NCBI GenBank assembly: GCA_965219915.1
Contig: OZ244794.1
Coordinates: 579,343 to 643,342, forward strand
Length of the DNA stretch: 64,000 bases
Direction of reading: 5' to 3'
DNA from: Rhodothermales bacterium
GTDB lineage: Bacteria > Bacteroidota > Rhodothermia > Rhodothermales > Bin80
Every line of letters begins with the position of its first letter. Position 1 is the stretch's first letter. The notes below the pieces were generated by a model, which saw only the letters and a list, made by a program, of their open reading frames with translations, was not told the origin of the DNA and searched no databases. Position numbers and translations under genes: made by a program. This document shows positions 10,617-31,021 of the stretch, piece after piece.

Positions 10617-13600
10617 ATGCCTACTACCCGTGAAGCATCAAAGATAACCTTGCACAGAGGAGGTATTAGCGCTTTGGTTGTGCTTGTGATATTCTGTGTG
10701 CAGTGTGGATCTAATCCACAGGGGCCAATGCAATCGATTAATGAAGGAGATCACATTGTGCTAATTGGCAACAATTTGTGCTCGCGCATGATGAATTTTG
10801 GGTATTTTGAAACGGAATTGCATCTGCGGTTTCCAGAGCACAAGCTAACAATCAGGAACATGTGCGATGGAGGCAATACTCCGGGTTTTCGGCCGCATCC
10901 GGGCCGTGTTTCTCCATGGGCTTTTCCTGGAGCAGACAGCTTCTACACGGAACTGGCACAGCCCTCCAACAGTCAGGGGCATTTCGAGACGCCCGATGAG
11001 TGGCTGACGCGATTGCAGGCCGATGTGATTGTGGCTTTCTTCGGCTTCAACGAATCCTTCGCCGGCCTTGAGGGAGTAGATGCCTTTGAATCAGAACTGG
11101 AGGCATTCGTCCAGCATACGCTTTCCCAATCTTACAACGGAGAGGGTGCGCCTGATCTCGCACTGGTATCTCCGATAGGCTTTGAGGATCTGACGCATGT
11201 ACTGGATGTACCTGACGGTAAGCAGGAGAATGTTAATCTGGCGGCCTACACAGAAGCCATTCAGCGTGTGTCGCAGCGTCATGGCCTCCCTTTTGCTGAC
11301 GTCTTCTCGGCTTCCAGAAGGTGGTATAGACGTACGACGGAGCCGCTTACCATTGACGGTTCACAGCTCAATGAAGGAGGATATGTCTTGTTGGCAGAAA
11401 GTCTGACGGATCAGTTGTTTGGGGGTAGTCGAGTGCTTGACGATCAGGAACGTGTCCATTTGCTGGCTGCCGTAAGAGACAAGAATTGGCATTGGCACAA
11501 CGATTTCAAAATCCCGAACGGCGTGCATGTGTATGGGCTTCGGTATAACCCGTTTGGACCGGACAACTATCCGGCAGAACTGGAAAAGATTAGTCAGATG
11601 ACCGCGATTCGGGATACCGCAGTTTGGCGGGTTCTAGCGGGAACTACTATGGATCTGGGAGCAGCCGATGCGCGGACGCGCGAGCTGCCTGAGGTGGTTA
11701 CTAACTACACTCCTAGCAACAAGAACGGGGACCCTGGTTATCGTTATGGAGAGGAGGCCTTAGCGACGCTCACTACTGCGCCTGGATACGAGATAGCGTT
11801 GTTCGCATCCGAAGTAGAGTTTCCCGACTTAGCGAATCCGGTTCAGATGTCATTTGATAATCAGGGCCGTCTGTGGGTATCGGTTATGCCCAGTTATCCG
11901 CACTGGAGGCCGGGAGATCCGCCTCCCAATGATAAGCTTCTGATCTTGGAAGACACAGATCAGGATGGAATGGCAGACCGGCAGATTGTATGGGCAGACG
12001 GTCTGCATCTCCCGGTTGGATTTGAATTCGCTCCGGAAGGGGTATATGTAAGCCAGGGTACCAATCTCGTACTGCTCTCAGATACCGACGGGGATGATCA
12101 TGCAGACACGCAGCAGACCATACTGAGTGGTTTTGACGATCACGATACGCATCATGTAATCAGCGCATTTGTGGCAGATCCATCCGGAGCCATCTATATG
12201 GGGGAAGGGGTATTTTTGCATTCAAACGTGGAGACATCGTATGGTCCGGTTCGAGGAACGAATGGGGGATTCTATCGCTACAACCCGCAACGACGCCACC
12301 TCGAACGCACTGCGCAACTGTCCATTCCCAATCCCTGGGGAATTGCTTTTGATGAATGGGGACAGCCTTTCTTCGCGGAAACTTCCGGTCCAGATGTACG
12401 CTGGATGTCCCCCGGAAGCCTTAAGCCACGTTATGGTGTGGCGACACATAAATCATATAACCTGATTGAGGATGCCCATCGCGTGCGTCCTACTTCGGGG
12501 TTAGAGTTCGTACACAGTCGACATTTCCCAGACGAAACGCAGGGGGACCTGTTGATCAACAACACGATTGGGTTCCTGGGGATGAAACAGCACACGATGG
12601 CGGATGACGGGACTGGATACATCAGTACGCATCGACATGATCTAGTTCAGAGTACCGATGGGAACTTCCGTCCTGTAGATATGGAGTTCGCCCCAGATGG
12701 TTCGCTTTACTTCGTTGACTGGCACAATGTGCTGATCGGTCACATGCAGCACAATGCACGCGATCCCCTGCGCGACCATGTTCATGGCCGGATCTATCGA
12801 ATTACGTATCCATCAAGGCCTCTGGTTGAGCCTGCCAGAGTAGCAGGAGCTGGCATTGATGAATTGCTGGAGAATCTGACGTTACCGGAGTATCGCACCC
12901 GGTACCGAACGCGTCGGGAACTACGCGGTCGTGCGCCCTCAGAAGTCTTGCCTCGCTTGGACATCTGGATGGCAGATCTGGACCCGGATGAAGAGAGATA
13001 CGAACATCATCTTTTGGAGGCCCTCTGGGTAACCTGGGGATTGAATCAGGTGGATGAAGCACTTTTGGAGCGGTTGTTGGGTGCGAGGGATTTCCGGGTT
13101 CGTGCTGCTGCCGTTCGTGTACTTCGATACAATCCACAGCTGGGAAGGCAGATAGAACTGCTTACAGAAGCAGCAGATGATTCGAATGGTCGTGTTCGTC
13201 TTGAAGTGATGGCGGCCGCTTCTTGGCTGGAACCCGAACAAGGGCTACCCATTGTTGAAAAAGCAAGTCAGCGCACACTGGATAGGTGGAACATGAATGT
13301 TTCCGTAACGGCTATAGCTCATTTGCGAGGTCAGCGTGTGCAGTCTGATCGGCCCGAAGAAGAAATGCCTGAACTGGAAGGTTCGGACCTGGAGCTGTTT
13401 ACCGCTGGTAAGGAGATTTATGGGCGCGATGGGTATTGCATTACCTGCCATAGGCCCGATGGCAAGGGGTTGCCGGCATCGGGCTTTCCTCCATTGGCCG
13501 GCACAGACTGGGTATTGGGGGATTCAGAGCGCCTGATCAAGGTCACATTGGATGGTCTCATCGGACCTATGGAAGTGTTGGGCGAGAGTTATCCGGGTCA

Positions 13601-13787
13601 GGTGCCTATGACACCATTCCGGGATTTGCTGAGCAACGATGAGGTTGCTGCCGTACTGACCTATGTGCGCAATGCATTCGGGAACCAGGCTTCAGCAATT
13701 ACGCCGGCCCAAGTAGAGTCCGTTCGTGCCAGTACAGCGACCAGGCAGGGATACTATACAGTCGACGAGCTTTTACAGAACAGATGA
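10617..13787 (+). CDS. PVC-type heme-binding CxxCH protein (SGNH-like N-domain, membrane-bound dehydrogenase-type beta-propeller, HEAT repeats, C-terminal cytochrome c)
   Basis: It begins with a lipoprotein-like N-terminus. Further blocks are GDHIVLIGNNL, FDNQGRLWVS and DGSLYFVDWHN, then HEAT-like FRVRAAAVRVL, and a C-terminal CITCHRPDGKG heme motif. Confidence 0.8.
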   Translation: MPTTREASKITLHRGGISALVVLVIFCVQCGSNPQGPMQSINEGDHIVLIGNNLCSRMMNFGYFETELHLRFPEHKLTIRNMCDGGNTPGFRPHPGRVSPWAFPGADSFYTELAQPSNSQGHFETPDEWLTRLQADVIVAFFGFNESFAGLEGVDAFESELEAFVQHTLSQSYNGEGAPDLALVSPIGFEDLTHVLDVPDGKQENVNLAAYTEAIQRVSQRHGLPFADVFSASRRWYRRTTEPLTIDGSQLNEGGYVLLAESLTDQLFGGSRVLDDQERVHLLAAVRDKNWHWHNDFKIPNGVHVYGLRYNPFGPDNYPAELEKISQMTAIRDTAVWRVLAGTTMDLGAADARTRELPEVVTNYTPSNKNGDPGYRYGEEALATLTTAPGYEIALFASEVEFPDLANPVQMSFDNQGRLWVSVMPSYPHWRPGDPPPNDKLLILEDTDQDGMADRQIVWADGLHLPVGFEFAPEGVYVSQGTNLVLLSDTDGDDHADTQQTILSGFDDHDTHHVISAFVADPSGAIYMGEGVFLHSNVETSYGPVRGTNGGFYRYNPQRRHLERTAQLSIPNPWGIAFDEWGQPFFAETSGPDVRWMSPGSLKPRYGVATHKSYNLIEDAHRVRPTSGLEFVHSRHFPDETQGDLLINNTIGFLGMKQHTMADDGTGYISTHRHDLVQSTDGNFRPVDMEFAPDGSLYFVDWHNVLIGHMQHNARDPLRDHVHGRIYRITYPSRPLVEPARVAGAGIDELLENLTLPEYRTRYRTRRELRGRAPSEVLPRLDIWMADLDPDEERYEHHLLEALWVTWGLNQVDEALLERLLGARDFRVRAAAVRVLRYNPQLGRQIELLTEAADDSNGRVRLEVMAAASWLEPEQGLPIVEKASQRTLDRWNMNVSVTAIAHLRGQRVQSDRPEEEMPELEGSDLELFTAGKEIYGRDGYCITCHRPDGKGLPASGFPPLAGTDWVLGDSERLIKVTLDGLIGPMEVLGESYPGQVPMTPFRDLLSNDEVAAVLTYVRNAFGNQASAITPAQVESVRASTATRQGYYTVDELLQNR

Positions 13788-26882: not shown

Positions 26883-29417
26883 TCACTCATCGCACAAGAG
26901 TTCTATCCTAAACTGGTTCCATTCAATCGAGTGATTCTTGATCAGTCCCGCGTCACATAAATGCCCTATAATGGTCATCAGGCGCTTGGGTTTAAGCCTA
27001 AAGATCTCCCCCATCATAAAACTTGCAACGGCTGCTATATCACCTTTCTCGTATGCATGAGACTTCCCGCAAGCGGAAGCAAAGTACAGCAATGCCTCAC
27101 GTGCCAATACTCGATCTTCCTCTGGTATGGCATCTATATTTACCGTTCCAGCCCACACTTCAACTTGGGACATTTCGAGAATGCTACTCACTATGGATTC
27201 AGAATTCCTCCACTCATCTGTAATCCAACGAGCATAAATCAATATTAAACCGCTAAACTCCGGCATCCGGCCATACTCTCTCATAATTTTCCGATACACC
27301 CTCGCTGCCCACTTGGAGGTCCCTTGAACTGCATAAGCCGCAAGGGCAATTGTAAAAATACGGGACTCCAGCAGCGAAGGCATCTGGATTTGATCAACAA
27401 ATTCCGCCACCCCGTCAGTCAGATTCATGATCTCTTTGGCAACCCCTTCCGAGATTCCATCAAGTTTACCCCGAACCAACTTGGAACCCTCAGAATTCCA
27501 GTCAATCTGTTCGCCTAACCACACTATCGTATCCCAATCAAGGCTGGGCGGTGACTTGAAGATGGGATGTAGAGTCGTATCATGGGTTTGTAGTCCGTGA
27601 TTAATATCCCAAGCGCTAATCGGTGAACTCGGGAATTCTGTGTCCGATAACCGATTCATCTCATCAACAGAATCCACTCCTGAATCAGGAGGTGCGGAAT
27701 AACATATTCCGGGTCTGCTCCCTGATACGTAAGCAACTGTGGTTGCAGCACTTTGGAATAGCTTCGTGCCTCGGGGAGCTGGTAGTGCCTGTTTGATTGT
27801 TTTTGGCAGTTCTTCCTGTATTTGAGCGTCCTCAGCTACAAGTACAAGACTGGTAAGGTGTGTGACCAGTCCCGCTTGAACCGCTATATTCGCCGCCCAT
27901 TTCTCCTCTGCACCTGAAAAAGCCAAACTGGCTGCATAGGCCGCAACCGCCTCCGAGAATTCACCACTGACTTGGCGATTCTTAGTCACGTGAGACCAAG
28001 ACGCCTCAATTGATGCATTATTGCGGGCCGCTACTACATGTTCTGGTAGCCCCGAACTATCTAAATCACAACGAACACCTCGAATGGATTTTCGTCGCAT
28101 TCCCTGTATACAGGCCTGAATGGCCTGGCTAACATCCGCCCCAAAACTAAAATGAATATCTCCTCCACTAAGCACGGCCAGATGCCCGACATTCGCTTCC
28201 AGACTCCCCTCTCCCACCAGAACCACAAATATTCGATGTCCACGCTTTGCCAACTGCTGAACATCTAAATCATAGCTTTGACCATCAGTTATCAACAGGA
28301 TATCCCGGCCTTCTTCAGAGGTGCAAACTTGATTTAAAGCACGTCCGATGGAAGTTCCCCCGCGAGGACCACCTAGTTTGGAAAGCAAGCTCCCAAATTC
28401 TTCGGAGTTGCTGGAGTTAAATTCTCCCACACGGTCACAATCGGTATCAAATTCCCATAAAGCCAGGTGATCCCCATCTATCAGTAATGGTTGCACTTCA
28501 CGTAGGCCGCGAACCACAGCTTCGTGTTGAGTTTCGTAATCATCACCGGAATATGTGCACGGACTGCCCATAGAGCCGGATCTGTCCACAAGCACTGCCG
28601 CATTCAGGGGGGCACGCTGCTTATCGTGTGGAGATATTTGAAGCGACACTAGACGACCGTCTCCGCTAATACCGGCCAGTTCTGAAGTGGCTACACCGGA
28701 CACTCTAAGTTCAATTGGGGCATTACCAGGAATTTTAGCAAAATAGAGATCCCCTTCCACCTGACATAAACTGCCCTCTGCTAATTCTACACTTGCTGCA
28801 TCATGCTGTATGCTTAGCGTAGCCTCAGGGATGGGGCCACCAGTGGTTAGTGCATCTACATCCTCCAATGGAGATATTCCATAAACGTCACCCACTGTAA
28901 GAGGAATTCGCAATTGACCGATACCCTCATGAAAACGTAGCAATTCTGCCCAGCGAGTCGTGACCGTTACTGTTTTACCGGAACCAAGATTGCCAACTGA
29001 AAGGGAATGAATCCCTCGCAGTAGCTCTTCATGCAACACTGCGGCCTTGCCCTCATCGATCGCCTCCTCGTACGTTTCAAGTGCCTCCTGTTTTGGCTTT
29101 GCCTGCGCATCGTAAGACTTCCCGTCAATAATCGCGCTCAATCCAAAAAATGCTGCGTGAATAGATACCGGTAGACTCATCACAGCTTCAATGGGGCCAT
29201 CAGCTTTGTTGATATATGTTCTTACGGCTTTTACAAAAGCCAGACCACCACGAATCGTTACATGGAAATCCAGTTTTACCAACGGTGCGTCATTTGCTGT
29301 GGAGTCACTATGCACTAGATCTGCAAATGGATCATCGTGCCGCCTTCGCTCTGGAAAATGCGGTAACGCCAAGAAATCAACGGTTGTAGAATCGGGTGAG
29401 AATTTGTGTAGCGTCAT
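26883..29417 (-). CDS. Cytoplasmic VIT-vWA domain protein with an uncharacterised ~300-aa helical C-terminal region
   Basis: VIT-like block: VKLDFHVTIRGGLAFVKAVRTY ... AKPKQEALETYEEAIDEGKAAVLHEE ... SVGNLGSGKTVTV. vWA MIDAS motif: AVLVDRSGSMGS (DxSxS), with later TSIGRAL and LLITDG. There is no N-terminal signal peptide (MTLHKFSPDSTTVDF...). Confidence 0.8.
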   Translation of the reverse strand: MTLHKFSPDSTTVDFLALPHFPERRRHDDPFADLVHSDSTANDAPLVKLDFHVTIRGGLAFVKAVRTYINKADGPIEAVMSLPVSIHAAFFGLSAIIDGKSYDAQAKPKQEALETYEEAIDEGKAAVLHEELLRGIHSLSVGNLGSGKTVTVTTRWAELLRFHEGIGQLRIPLTVGDVYGISPLEDVDALTTGGPIPEATLSIQHDAASVELAEGSLCQVEGDLYFAKIPGNAPIELRVSGVATSELAGISGDGRLVSLQISPHDKQRAPLNAAVLVDRSGSMGSPCTYSGDDYETQHEAVVRGLREVQPLLIDGDHLALWEFDTDCDRVGEFNSSNSEEFGSLLSKLGGPRGGTSIGRALNQVCTSEEGRDILLITDGQSYDLDVQQLAKRGHRIFVVLVGEGSLEANVGHLAVLSGGDIHFSFGADVSQAIQACIQGMRRKSIRGVRCDLDSSGLPEHVVAARNNASIEASWSHVTKNRQVSGEFSEAVAAYAASLAFSGAEEKWAANIAVQAGLVTHLTSLVLVAEDAQIQEELPKTIKQALPAPRGTKLFQSAATTVAYVSGSRPGICYSAPPDSGVDSVDEMNRLSDTEFPSSPISAWDINHGLQTHDTTLHPIFKSPPSLDWDTIVWLGEQIDWNSEGSKLVRGKLDGISEGVAKEIMNLTDGVAEFVDQIQMPSLLESRIFTIALAAYAVQGTSKWAARVYRKIMREYGRMPEFSGLILIYARWITDEWRNSESIVSSILEMSQVEVWAGTVNIDAIPEEDRVLAREALLYFASACGKSHAYEKGDIAAVASFMMGEIFRLKPKRLMTIIGHLCDAGLIKNHSIEWNQFRIELLCDE

Positions 29418-29424
29418 GGGAATC

Positions 29425-29808
29425 CTATTTGTCTGGTTTTGAAAAAATGCGTTCCAAGACTGATTTGATATGCTCCTCTAACTCGTCAATTGGAACGCTT
29501 TCTGCAATCAGGCTTGGGTTAATAATTAGCGATATACCTGGAACAACTTGAAATGGCACGCCTGTTTGGGTCTCCATCAGTAGCCGGATTGAAGCTGGAG
29601 AAAAACCTGCTGCACGCAGATGCTGATATCGCTCAATCGCCGATACATGGACATCCCCATACACAGCATTGGCCCTGCCTCCAGTCGGGGGAGGTACAAA
29701 GCCTTCAGCAATCAGGTAGCGCACCTGACGTGCTGTGTATCCGGTCGTTTTGGTAAGTTCTCGCATCGTCATTTTCCTTTTGACGTACTTTTTGTCAAAA
29801 GGTTTCAT
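29425..29808 (-). CDS. MerR family transcriptional regulator
   Basis: MTMRELTKTTGYTARQVRYLIAEGFVPPPTGG is a MerR-type N-terminal HTH. The stop lies 7 nt before the VIT-vWA start. The start is ambiguous (ATGs at 29808 and 29772; the ORF track extends to 29874). Confidence 0.75.
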   Translation of the reverse strand: MKPFDKKYVKRKMTMRELTKTTGYTARQVRYLIAEGFVPPPTGGRANAVYGDVHVSAIERYQHLRAAGFSPASIRLLMETQTGVPFQVVPGISLIINPSLIAESVPIDELEEHIKSVLERIFSKPDK

Positions 29809-30318
29809 TTTCAAGAGATTTTTTTGTTCCCTTGGAAATTCCCACAACAATTGCTCGCCTCTACTGCAATGCACATCCCACTTTAGCCGTCCGGTTCAGT
29901 CACAATTTGAATGGAATGAATTGACTTGCGTAAACCAAGACCAACATTTTCATGGAGGACACTTTTCCAGTTTTTGGATGCCCCTAAGAGACAGGCTCAC
30001 ATGACAATCGCGAATAGCCATGTCTTCTCGGGTCACCTGAATGTGATAGAGATATTCGGTGATCTCTATATGTCCGATCTGATTCAGGATGGCACAGCTT
30101 GCTAGCAATTGAATCTAGAAACAATTCCGCGTCGGGCACTCCCTCTGGTAAGGGTTAATCAGGCCTGCTTAGTTTGAATCACGTAATCCCGTGCTGTGCT
30201 GAACGGGGCTCGGGGAAGGGTCAGAAAAGCCTCAAGACGGTTGACGTTCTGGAAACCTAGACCTACATCGCGTGTACAGGCAACGAAAGCTAGGTGCTAA
30301 GGAGAATCAAGAATCAAA

Positions 30319-30582
30319 ATGCGGATGAAAAAGATAGACTGGACCAGCAAGCGCGTCGAAAGACTCAACATTATTCTGTCCTGTGTCGGATGGGGCCTTC
30401 TAGCCTTGGCAATGGTGTTGGAGATAGTGTTCAAGGGGACTTTAGATCTGACAGCAAGCGGTAATACCGGCATCGTGTTCATGGTTTGGTTTATGGGCCA
30501 ATTGTTCTATGCTTATAAGCGTGACCAGCAGCGCTTATTGGATCGCCTGGAAGCAGGTGGCCTCCTCAAGAAAGAACCCTGA
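30319..30582 (+). CDS. Small two-TM membrane protein, hypothetical
   Basis: There are two hydrophobic segments (LNIILSCVGWGLLALAMVLEIVF and GIVFMVWFMGQLFYAY). The gene is divergent from the MerR gene. Confidence 0.4.
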   Translation: MRMKKIDWTSKRVERLNIILSCVGWGLLALAMVLEIVFKGTLDLTASGNTGIVFMVWFMGQLFYAYKRDQQRLLDRLEAGGLLKKEP

Positions 30583-31021
30583 CGAAATCCACAAAGAGGC
30601 GTTGATCTGTGATTGGGGGCTGTTCACATCACCGTTTCCATTGTCCCACTGGTACGCCAGGGTGACAGGCGTGTGGGCAAAAACGTATAGAACCAAACAA
30701 GGACGGGCCTAGTGCACAATATTCTGCCCCCGCGAATTCAATCAAAAGCGGGAACCCTACCGAACCACAAGCCACCAATCAATCGAGGGGAGTCGAGCCC
30801 ACCGCCGCGAGCCCTGATATAATTGCAGACCACACGAACAGCGCCGGAAAGGGAAACTTGGCGGCCATCCAGTATCGTGTCGTGGTGCGACCAGGAGCCC
30901 CGTTGACTGTGGCACGGAAGTCATCGGTAGCACCGCCCGGTGAAGGGAATTTCAGTACCAACCATACGCGGAGCGGTGTGCTCGTCGAACGGAAACAAAA
31001 TAGAATTACTGAGATGTCCGG

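Follow-up and report, generated by a model that had tools for sequence, protein, structure and literature searches.

A MerR-like/VIT-vWA gene pair and its operator

We analysed a stretch of 64,000 nucleotides (nt) from a Rhodothermales genome (Bacteroidota; assembly GCA_965219915.1, contig OZ244794.1, positions 579,343 to 643,342 of the forward strand), from here on called the window. On its minus strand lies a two-gene cassette. The first gene (29425–29772) encodes a regulator of 113–115 amino acids (aa) with a MerR-type winged helix-turn-helix (HTH), recognised by the Pfam family PF13411. The second gene (26883–29417) encodes an 844-aa protein with a VIT and a vWA domain, identified from the list of open reading frames (ORFs), Pfam and an alignment of homologues. 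A first-pass annotation, made from the letters of the window, had placed a MerR-type ORF 7 nt before an 844-aa ORF. Both were found there, with Pfam domains above the cut-offs, and 7 nt separate the stop codon of the regulator gene (29425–29427) from the ATG of the VIT-vWA gene. The start of the regulator had to be moved from 29874 to a conserved ATG, recognised in 44 aligned orthologues, at 29772 (protein start MTMRELT) or 29766 (MRELT). Among 41 orthologous loci the commonest junction, found in 14, was a 4-nt overlap of stop and start (ATGA). The VIT-vWA gene is translationally coupled to the regulator gene.

An AlphaFold2 model of the VIT-vWA protein, built from 28 sequences, had a predicted template modelling score (pTM) of 0.71 and was confident for aa 45–548. 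All parts of the protein named below are encoded on the minus strand. The model begins with the VIT domain and the beta-sandwich following it (aa 45–262, 28632–29285), where the predicted local distance difference test (pLDDT) was mostly 85–95 and fell to ~45–60 around aa 181–194. Pfam recognised the VIT domain (PF08487) at aa 47–153 with 70.8 bits against a cut-off of 26.5 (E 1.4e-19), and this region also matched the VIT domain of PARP4. The vWA domain (aa 270–440, 28098–28610) was recognised at aa 275–414 by PF00092 (27.5 bits vs. 23.8) and by VWA_2 (PF13519; 27.8 bits vs. 27), and had Foldseek matches to vWA domains. Its MIDAS, a metal ion-dependent adhesion site, is complete (D278-x-S280-x-S282, T355 and D378), as first annotated, and all five residues are invariant in 28 homologues. 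The region after the vWA domain (aa 441–548, 27774–28097), with the motif GLVTHLTSLVLV, which aligns weakly with PARP4, completes a fold like that of the inter-alpha-inhibitor (ITIH) heavy chains. With Foldseek, aa 45–548 matched heavy chain 1 (ITIH1, 6fpy) with an E value of 1.3e-21 over ~620–650 columns. In the model, the VIT domain and the vWA domain with its MIDAS are thereby predicted as a single unit of the ITIH-heavy-chain type. Foldseek matches to M1 aminopeptidases had a TM-score of ~0.14 and were taken as beta-sandwich similarity. A deep 6_3 knot has been predicted for VIT-vWA (ITIH-like) proteins, human VWA5A and bacterial members among them (bioRxiv 10.1101/2023.06.16.545156), and the window protein shares the ITIH-like fold.

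The C-terminal part had been described as a single helical tail of ~300 aa, ending in a winged-helix segment. We found instead that the stretch up to aa 548 belongs to the ITIH-like fold and is followed by three further regions. The Pro/Ser-rich linker (aa 549–624, 27546–27773) is disordered (pLDDT 23–38), variable in length and unalignable among homologues. Behind it comes a helical C-terminal domain conserved in the whole family (aa 625–715, 27273–27545; pLDDT mostly 86–91, one block ~66), in which W640, L647, A694 and R706 are invariant. The protein ends with a clade-specific extension (aa 716–844, 26886–27272; pLDDT mostly <65), present only in relatives at least 84% identical. A winged helix at aa 800–844 found no support from Pfam, the model or phmmer. 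Against 1.84e9 representative proteins, phmmer gave five matches for the extension: two stand-alone proteins of 133–144 aa, one fragment of the VIT-vWA family itself, a 4112-aa NACHT protein and a 4035-aa protein secreted by two-partner secretion (TPS), the last two with seven matched stretches each. The fused C-terminal domain (aa ~753–843, 26886–27158) has the look of a mobile interaction or repeat domain not yet characterised.

No signal peptide or hydrophobic N-terminus was found in 28 homologues; LPXTG, DPHF, HExxH and CxxC motifs are absent from the window protein. The VIT-vWA protein is, as predicted from its sequence, cytoplasmic. This agrees with the intracellular location proposed at first; homologues with signal peptides, which would have argued for a truncated secreted protein, were not seen. 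The accompanying view of VIT-vWA architectures as classically extracellular did not hold, the best PDB sequence match being the intracellular PARP4 (E 4.5e-17 in a profile search, VIT domain), vs. 1.5e-5 for ITIH4. The protein shares the lack of a signal peptide, the long disordered loop and the helical C-terminal domain with the intracellular subclass of VIT-vWA proteins, as described for Dictyostelium Vwa1 and human VWA5A (PMC10539598).

Several motifs are invariant within the clade of the window protein. These are VLHEELLRGxH (H129, E131 and H137; aa 129–137, 29005–29033), the pair H205-D206 (28800–28805), and an N-terminal DP(I/F)AxL motif (aa 29–30, 29328–29333) within a segment that is disordered otherwise. 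Neither PARP4 nor the betaproteobacterial clade has any of the three, which may constitute a metal site or a MIDAS ligand in cis. We rejected a metalloprotease role for the invariant H-E-x5-H, as it is not an HExxH motif, sits in a predicted beta-hairpin and is missing from the betaproteobacterial clade.

The regulator scored 50.2 bits with MerR_1 (PF13411; cut-off 21.6), which places it among the MerR-type winged HTH proteins, and its profile matched CueR, CadR and SCO5550. Its AlphaFold2 model (mean pLDDT 82) had an HTH, a wing and two helices; a beta-hairpin (aa 70–82) and a short helix (aa 93–108) come next. Foldseek gave weak matches (E ~2e-3) to PbrR, CadR and CueR, over the DNA-binding domain, and to NmlR and CvkR. 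The long C-terminal helix for dimerisation by antiparallel coiled coil and the effector region were not in the model, which has a 16-residue helix instead. The sequence has no Cys, no effector domain and no C-terminal metal-binding loop, and its scores with the CueR and CadR equivalog models were ~22 bits vs. cut-offs of ~150.

Alignment of the regions upstream of the conserved regulator start revealed a palindrome with the family consensus TTTYGACA-N7-TGTCRAAA. In the window, this 23-bp operator reads TTTTGACA-N7-(T/C)GTCAAAA and lies at 29778–29800, with an extended form, CCTTTTGAC-N9-GTCAAAAGG, at 29776–29802. The ATG follows 5 nt downstream of the operator, which shares sequence with a sigma-70-like -35 element (TTGACA). 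The palindrome was present in 41 of 42 loci with at most 4 mismatches in 16 positions, and the spacer was always 7 nt; among shuffled controls, only 3 of 840 reached ≤3 mismatches. The site at 29778–29800 was the sole match in the window. Across the 823 kb scanned, which included no whole genome, nearly all sites were at the cassette, in front of the MerR-like gene. Two loci have the gene order swapped, and there both genes carried a palindrome of their own (L040, 5739–5761 and 7993–8015; L025, 4323–4345). Among orthologous loci the half-sites were constant and the spacer sequence varied freely. The in-frame peptide MKPFDKKYVKR upstream of the regulator start is the translated operator, and in one locus (L037) this frame is interrupted by a stop codon. 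The palindrome is therefore a DNA-level element, and the true protein has 113–115 aa.

The promoter took two arrangements. In Acidobacteriota and Gemmatimonadota, a TATAAT-like -10 hexamer lies at the centre of the palindrome, 17 nt after TTGACA; the right half-site of the palindrome reaches into the Shine-Dalgarno sequence. Such a position of the dyad, together with a spacer of 17 nt, is the geometry of a repressor; in one locus (L036) the spacer is possibly 19 nt long. In the window, the TTGACA of the left half-site is at the same time the -35 element, and the spacer has 16 nt. As read from the sequence, the site overlaps the core promoter in either arrangement. The conserved, promoter-overlapping palindrome, with an own copy for each gene in the swapped-order loci, makes the transcriptional self-regulation proposed in the first-pass annotation likely. 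Five alphaproteobacterial loci (L043, L032, L044, L046 and L034) had tandem palindromes ~44 bp apart around a TTGAC -35 element, upstream of the regulator gene, suggesting cooperative binding. GACA...TGTC dyads were also found upstream of the Rhizobium and Aquabacterium copies. Reading of the sequences upstream of the Limnobacter and Massilia cassettes gave no convincing SOS (LexA) box.

With its MerR-type winged HTH, a palindromic operator and no small-molecule-binding domain, the window regulator resembles CvkR, NmlR and the regulators of the pairs HspR-DnaK and TnrA/GlnR-glutamine synthetase. The latter two pairs are examples of MerR-family proteins ruled by a protein partner. For the window regulator, such control by a partner is something we infer. 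It differs from these repressors in ending with a beta-hairpin and a 16-residue helix, and not with a long antiparallel coiled coil. The geometry of the site also differs: in the phyla with an evident sigma-70 promoter the -10 box marks the centre of the dyad and the spacer has 17 nt, in place of the MerR arrangement in which a dyad inside an over-long spacer of 19–20 nt allows activation through distortion of the DNA.

Conservation and genomic context of the pair

By scanning one genome per GTDB species we obtained 47 VIT-vWA loci. They came from Rhodothermales, Bryobacterales/Terriglobia (Acidobacteriota), Longimicrobiales/Gemmatimonadaceae (Gemmatimonadota), Caldilineaceae and other Chloroflexota, and Alphaproteobacteria, where the isolate Lichenifustis flavocetrariae has two copies of the cassette. 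A MerR-like gene adjoined the VIT-vWA gene in 44 of the 47 loci, in 42 as the immediately preceding gene on the same strand, in two (L025 and L040) as the immediately following one. In L040 the VIT-vWA frame is split into two ORFs, possibly a pseudogene or a long-read sequencing error. The VIT-vWA protein has at least 541 homologues, typically of ~700 aa; the family members are full length, and their alignment has 78 invariant columns. For the small regulator we found ~300 homologues, nearly all 109–148 aa long and none longer than 184 aa, which indicates one dedicated family of regulators.

The arrangement extends to more distant relatives. The betaproteobacterial VIT-vWA proteins, 23–28% identical to the window protein (Massilia sp. 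H6 plasmid, Aquabacterium olei plasmid and Limnobacter sp.), are each preceded by an overlapping gene of the MerR family. The same order of MerR and VIT-vWA genes was found in the copy on pRlX5 of Rhizobium leguminosarum (35% identical) and in metagenomic copies. Across the clades, homology was recognised for the VIT-vWA proteins with an E value of 1e-23, and for the regulators with an hhalign probability of 97% (E 3e-11). The Limnobacter sp. homologue, P0315, aligns with aa 57–546 of the window protein, and its overlapping upstream MerR-like gene is homologous to the window regulator. The window clade and P0315 are ~23% identical; the former has its own invariant His/Glu motif, the N-terminal DP(I/F)AxL motif and a C-terminal domain of another kind, to which the genus of the window adds the fused domain.

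A plasmid search gave only distant relatives, and a scan of 2.9 million viral contigs no relative at all. No third conserved gene emerged from all-against-all clustering of the flanking ORFs, in which any further gene was shared by a few near relatives at most. The 269 neighbour proteins, tallied with Pfam and PADLOC, likewise yielded none, being heterogeneous and mostly housekeeping. The adjacency of the two genes is conserved across phyla, at least six in all, in the 44 loci and in the betaproteobacterial clade, and the window copy belongs to a widespread, essentially uncharacterised operon family. In the searchable literature we found no description of the pairing, in line with the first impression that it is not a described system. 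New relative to that literature are the MerR-like protein as an obligatory partner, the operator and the features peculiar to the clade; the type of VIT-vWA protein was already known.

The cassette is likely horizontally acquired, as first proposed. It is distributed patchily over five or more phyla, has a low G + C content at third codon positions (GC3), and its betaproteobacterial copies are on plasmids or integrase-bearing islands. The pair had been called visibly AT-richer than its surroundings. The difference is real and modest, with a G + C content of 0.485 vs. 0.514–0.530 in the flanks and a GC3 of 0.42 vs. 0.50–0.58 in eight neighbouring genes. A recent insertion, as the earlier description could be read, does not fit with relatives ~85% identical that hold the cassette at the same locus, and no direct or inverted repeats hinting at insertion were found around the cassette. 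Its orientation, first given as antiparallel to the flanking sugar operon, is convergent with the sugar ABC operon on one side and the same as that of the upstream creatininase/UPF0261/FAD-oxidase operon on the other. Rfam and tRNA scans of the cassette region gave no match.

The gap upstream of the cassette (29875–31021) had been considered ~1.1 kb of gene-poor sequence. It contains an 87-aa ORF (30319–30582, plus strand), divergent to the cassette and with two predicted hydrophobic helices. The protein is 84–85% conserved in two relatives (L001 and L002), where the entire 1.1-kb gap is 81–83% conserved as DNA. The ORF was missing from all other cassette loci, and is therefore genus-specific and outside the family-wide unit.

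Genes of the DNA repair type adjoined some of the cassettes. In Limnobacter sp. (L053, DAIDBE010000002.1, 3574–13786) we found umuD-umuC, six unknown genes, a divergent SRAP gene, the MerR-VIT-vWA pair, SprT-like and T5orf172 genes and insertion sequence (IS) elements. In this island, genes for enzymes that form and resolve DNA-protein crosslinks adjoin the VIT-vWA gene. Two loci (L010, 1600–4938, and L012, 747–4070) had proteins of ~1110 aa with a YprB-type RNase H-like domain and a superfamily 1 (SF1) helicase, encoded upstream of the cassette on the opposite strand. Other neighbours of this type were an ExoI-DinG fusion (L021), a PD-(D/E)XK nuclease (L023), umuDC (L058) and UvrD (L064).

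Other copies had different company. On a 5.47-Mb metagenome contig (L049), cas3, cas4, cas1 and cas2 and many IS3 copies were found in the cassette region, and a plasmid copy (L052) had AbiEii, a methyltransferase and an integron integrase beside it. Directly downstream of the cassette in L049 lies a fusion of tyrosine phosphatase and ADP-ribosylglycohydrolase (12252–13727), which is curious given the PARP4 similarity. A small DUF3293 (PF11697) gene was found near betaproteobacterial cassettes in three different contexts (L057, 6889–7317; L058, 10050–10355; L064, 9499–9930). Some neighbour proteins matched the Mokosh-like, SoFic, DpdJ and mad3 models. Among the 269 neighbour proteins, for which there was no genome-wide background for statistics, no family occurred in more than three neighbourhoods and most members were housekeeping.

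Possible functions of the cassette

VIT-vWA proteins of the same build are known from eukaryotes. VWA5A/BCSC-1, Dictyostelium Vwa1 and the PARP4 module are cytoplasmic and have the same order of VIT, vWA, second VIT-like part, disordered loop and alpha-helical C-terminus. In contrast to the window protein, they have no dedicated DNA-binding regulator, and PARP4 sets the module in a BRCT-PARP-MINT protein. To our knowledge, the molecular function of these intracellular proteins (VWA5A/BCSC-1, Vwa1 and the module of the vault protein PARP4) has not been established. The ITIH heavy chains (ITIH1, 6FPY) have the whole VIT/vWA/hybrid fold and the MIDAS in common with the window protein, at 11–12% identity, but are secreted, with a signal peptide and a C-terminal DPHFII cleavage/glycosaminoglycan site, neither of which is present in the window protein. 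The likeness of the helical C-terminal domain to that of VWA5A is one of layout, as described in PMC10539598.

The closest experimental lead comes from LT3126 of Limnobacter thiooxidans, a 708-aa cytoplasmic VIT+VWA protein (bioRxiv 10.64898/2026.05.23.727404). Gamma rays raised its RNA 21.6-fold and its protein 30.1-fold, heat and oxidative stress induced it too, and its overexpression improved survival at 500 Gy ~200-fold without a growth cost (bioRxiv 10.64898/2026.05.23.727404). It was co-induced with LT3115, a helicase with a YprB RNase H-like domain, and the report mentions no MerR partner or operator for LT3126 (bioRxiv 10.64898/2026.05.23.727404). The YprB-helicase proteins upstream of the cassettes L010 and L012 have the same architecture as the radiation-induced LT3115. 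With the window protein, LT3126 shares the cytoplasmic VIT+vWA layout of ~700 aa, a conserved MIDAS, a patchy phyletic spread and likely horizontal transfer. By analogy, this only experimental lead points to tolerance of stress or radiation.

Pairs of DdrO with IrrE and of CapH with CapP, in each of which an HTH repressor has a metalloprotease partner, offer an analogy for the genetic layout. As proposed for the window, a small HTH repressor gene stands beside a larger sensor gene, and the pair is self-contained, mobile and linked to damage or defence. The partners there cleave the repressor, whereas the window VIT-vWA protein has no HExxH motif, and nothing downstream is regulated in cis.

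The explanation we favour, at a little under an even chance, is that the cassette is an autonomous, negatively autoregulated and stress-inducible two-gene operon that acts as a stress-tolerance module. The adjacency of the genes, the homology across clades, the 4-nt overlap, the operator, the absence of a third gene, the fold, the cytoplasmic location, the LT3126 data and the repair-type neighbours speak for it. A dimer of the MerR-like protein would bind the palindrome and keep both genes at a low basal level. Stress, which by analogy with the Limnobacter homologue may be ionising radiation, oxidants or heat, would relieve the repression. The VIT-vWA protein, in which no catalytic domain was recognised, may then serve as a metal-dependent hub that binds damaged proteins or nucleoprotein complexes through the MIDAS, and so raise survival. 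It may also bind its own repressor, as suggested by the strict co-inheritance and the coupled translation of the two genes. In that case the operon would sense how much VIT-vWA protein remains free, as in HspR-DnaK or in the conditional cooperativity of toxin-antitoxin systems.

Several points weigh against this explanation. Stress induction and protection in the window clade are argued from the Limnobacter homologue, and P0315, which lacks the clade-specific His/Glu motif, has only 23% identity with the window protein. Both the orthology of LT3126 to P0315 and a MerR gene beside LT3126 are presumed. Repair-type neighbours occurred in a minority of loci, many of the helicases and nucleases could equally be defence genes, and CRISPR-Cas (L049), BREX (L057) and AbiE (L052) were found beside some copies. 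Repressor action is deduced from the position of the operator, and in the window a MerR-style activator mode is possible, because the -35 element lies inside the left half-site and the spacer has 16 nt. Contact between the regulator and the VIT-vWA protein, which the co-inheritance and coupling suggest, is a proposal.

The first-pass annotation had suggested, as a possibility, an anti-phage or anti-mobile-element function. The analysis supported the intracellular location and the conserved adjacency and made self-regulation and mobility likely; the anti-phage role, the winged helix, the classically extracellular setting and the recent insertion found no support. In a defence or toxin-antitoxin-like module, the HTH protein would be both autorepressor and antidote, and the VIT-vWA protein would sense invader proteins with its MIDAS and bring about growth arrest or sequestration. 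The layout resembles that of type II toxin-antitoxin systems, with a small autoregulating HTH gene overlapping a larger downstream gene, and the patchy, mobile distribution and low GC3 would suit such a module. So would the copies next to CRISPR-Cas and IS elements, BREX, or AbiEii, methyltransferase and integron integrase on a plasmid, the matches of neighbours to models of defence genes (Mokosh-like, SoFic, DpdJ, mad3), the weak match of the regulator to mad1 of MADS, and the recurrence of the fused C-terminal domain as a repeat in a NACHT protein. In PADLOC-DB v2, however, the VIT-vWA protein matched no family, and the mad1 match of the regulator (E 5.3e-06) covered only the HTH. No defence family stood out in the tallies of the 269 neighbour proteins, which were mostly housekeeping, and the viral contigs contained no relative. 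No toxic or enzymatic effector domain can be recognised in the VIT-vWA protein, and the Limnobacter homologue was not toxic when overexpressed without the regulator (bioRxiv 10.64898/2026.05.23.727404). Defence is a weaker rival than stress tolerance, and we consider it unlikely.

The pair could also be a sensor and a regulator with their output elsewhere, the VIT-vWA protein receiving the signal as anti- or co-repressor and the MerR-like protein controlling a dispersed regulon, for example of helicase-nuclease or other repair genes. The regulator itself lacks a domain for ligand binding, and HspR-DnaK and TnrA/GlnR-glutamine synthetase are precedents for a protein partner. LT3126 was co-induced with the unlinked LT3115 and LT3105, its overexpression alone protected, as that of an anti-repressor would, and in L010 and L012 a gene built like LT3115 precedes the cassette in divergent orientation. 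The near-restriction of the operator to the cassette in the 823 kb scanned (no whole genome), with a single site in the window, argues against dispersed targets, and as a mere co-regulator, a highly conserved protein of ~700 aa with the complete ITIH-like fold would be large. We regard this possibility as doubtful. Metal homeostasis, with a MerR-type metal sensor and a metal-binding vWA protein as chelatase or metallochaperone, appears very improbable. Among PDB structures the regulator comes closest to the metal sensors PbrR, CadR and CueR, the VIT domain has the clade-invariant residues H129, E131, H137, H205 and D206, and vWA proteins take part, together with MoxR ATPases, in the insertion of metal cofactors. 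Yet the regulator has neither Cys nor the C-terminal metal-binding loop or the long dimerisation helix, and its equivalog scores with CueR and CadR were far below the cut-offs. Flank clustering and neighbour tallies revealed no linked MoxR or transporter gene, and the His/Glu motif is missing from the betaproteobacterial clade. A truncated or degenerate adhesin, once secreted or sortase-anchored and beside an unrelated regulator by chance, was suggested by the sole NCBIfam match, "marine proteobacterial sortase target" (TIGR03788). This match reached 61 bits vs. a cut-off of 551.65 and covered the VIT region only. With no signal peptide in any of the 28 aligned homologues, no LPXTG in the window protein, a highly conserved family of full-length proteins, and conserved adjacency and operator, a degenerate adhesin is effectively refuted and has next to no chance of being right.

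There is also a more far-reaching reading, which we put forward as a speculative and rather improbable idea. The pair may be a so far unrecognised, widely transferred damage sensor-effector in one operon. A knotted ITIH-like protein would capture damaged proteins, DNA-protein lesions or invader proteins via its MIDAS and be held in check by binding its dedicated repressor. It would then be the prokaryotic counterpart of the VWA5A/Vwa1/PARP4 module.

Significance for the VIT-vWA superfamily

The analysis defines a bacterial superfamily in which a MerR-type regulator of its own and a recognisable operator go with the VIT-vWA module. To LT3126, the only characterised bacterial member and a radiation-protective protein, it adds a presumed regulatory partner that was missing. 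The operator, the regulator and the MIDAS site are genetic handles, and several carriers are cultivable, with Rhizobium leguminosarum TP16, Lichenifustis flavocetrariae BP6-180914, Massilia sp. H6 and Aquabacterium olei as candidates. If the cassette serves stress tolerance, it would be a small, transferable determinant of survival under radiation and oxidative stress; if it serves defence, it would represent a new defence architecture. Should the pair act as a damage sensor-effector, a tractable bacterial system could reveal the role of the VIT-vWA module in all domains of life.

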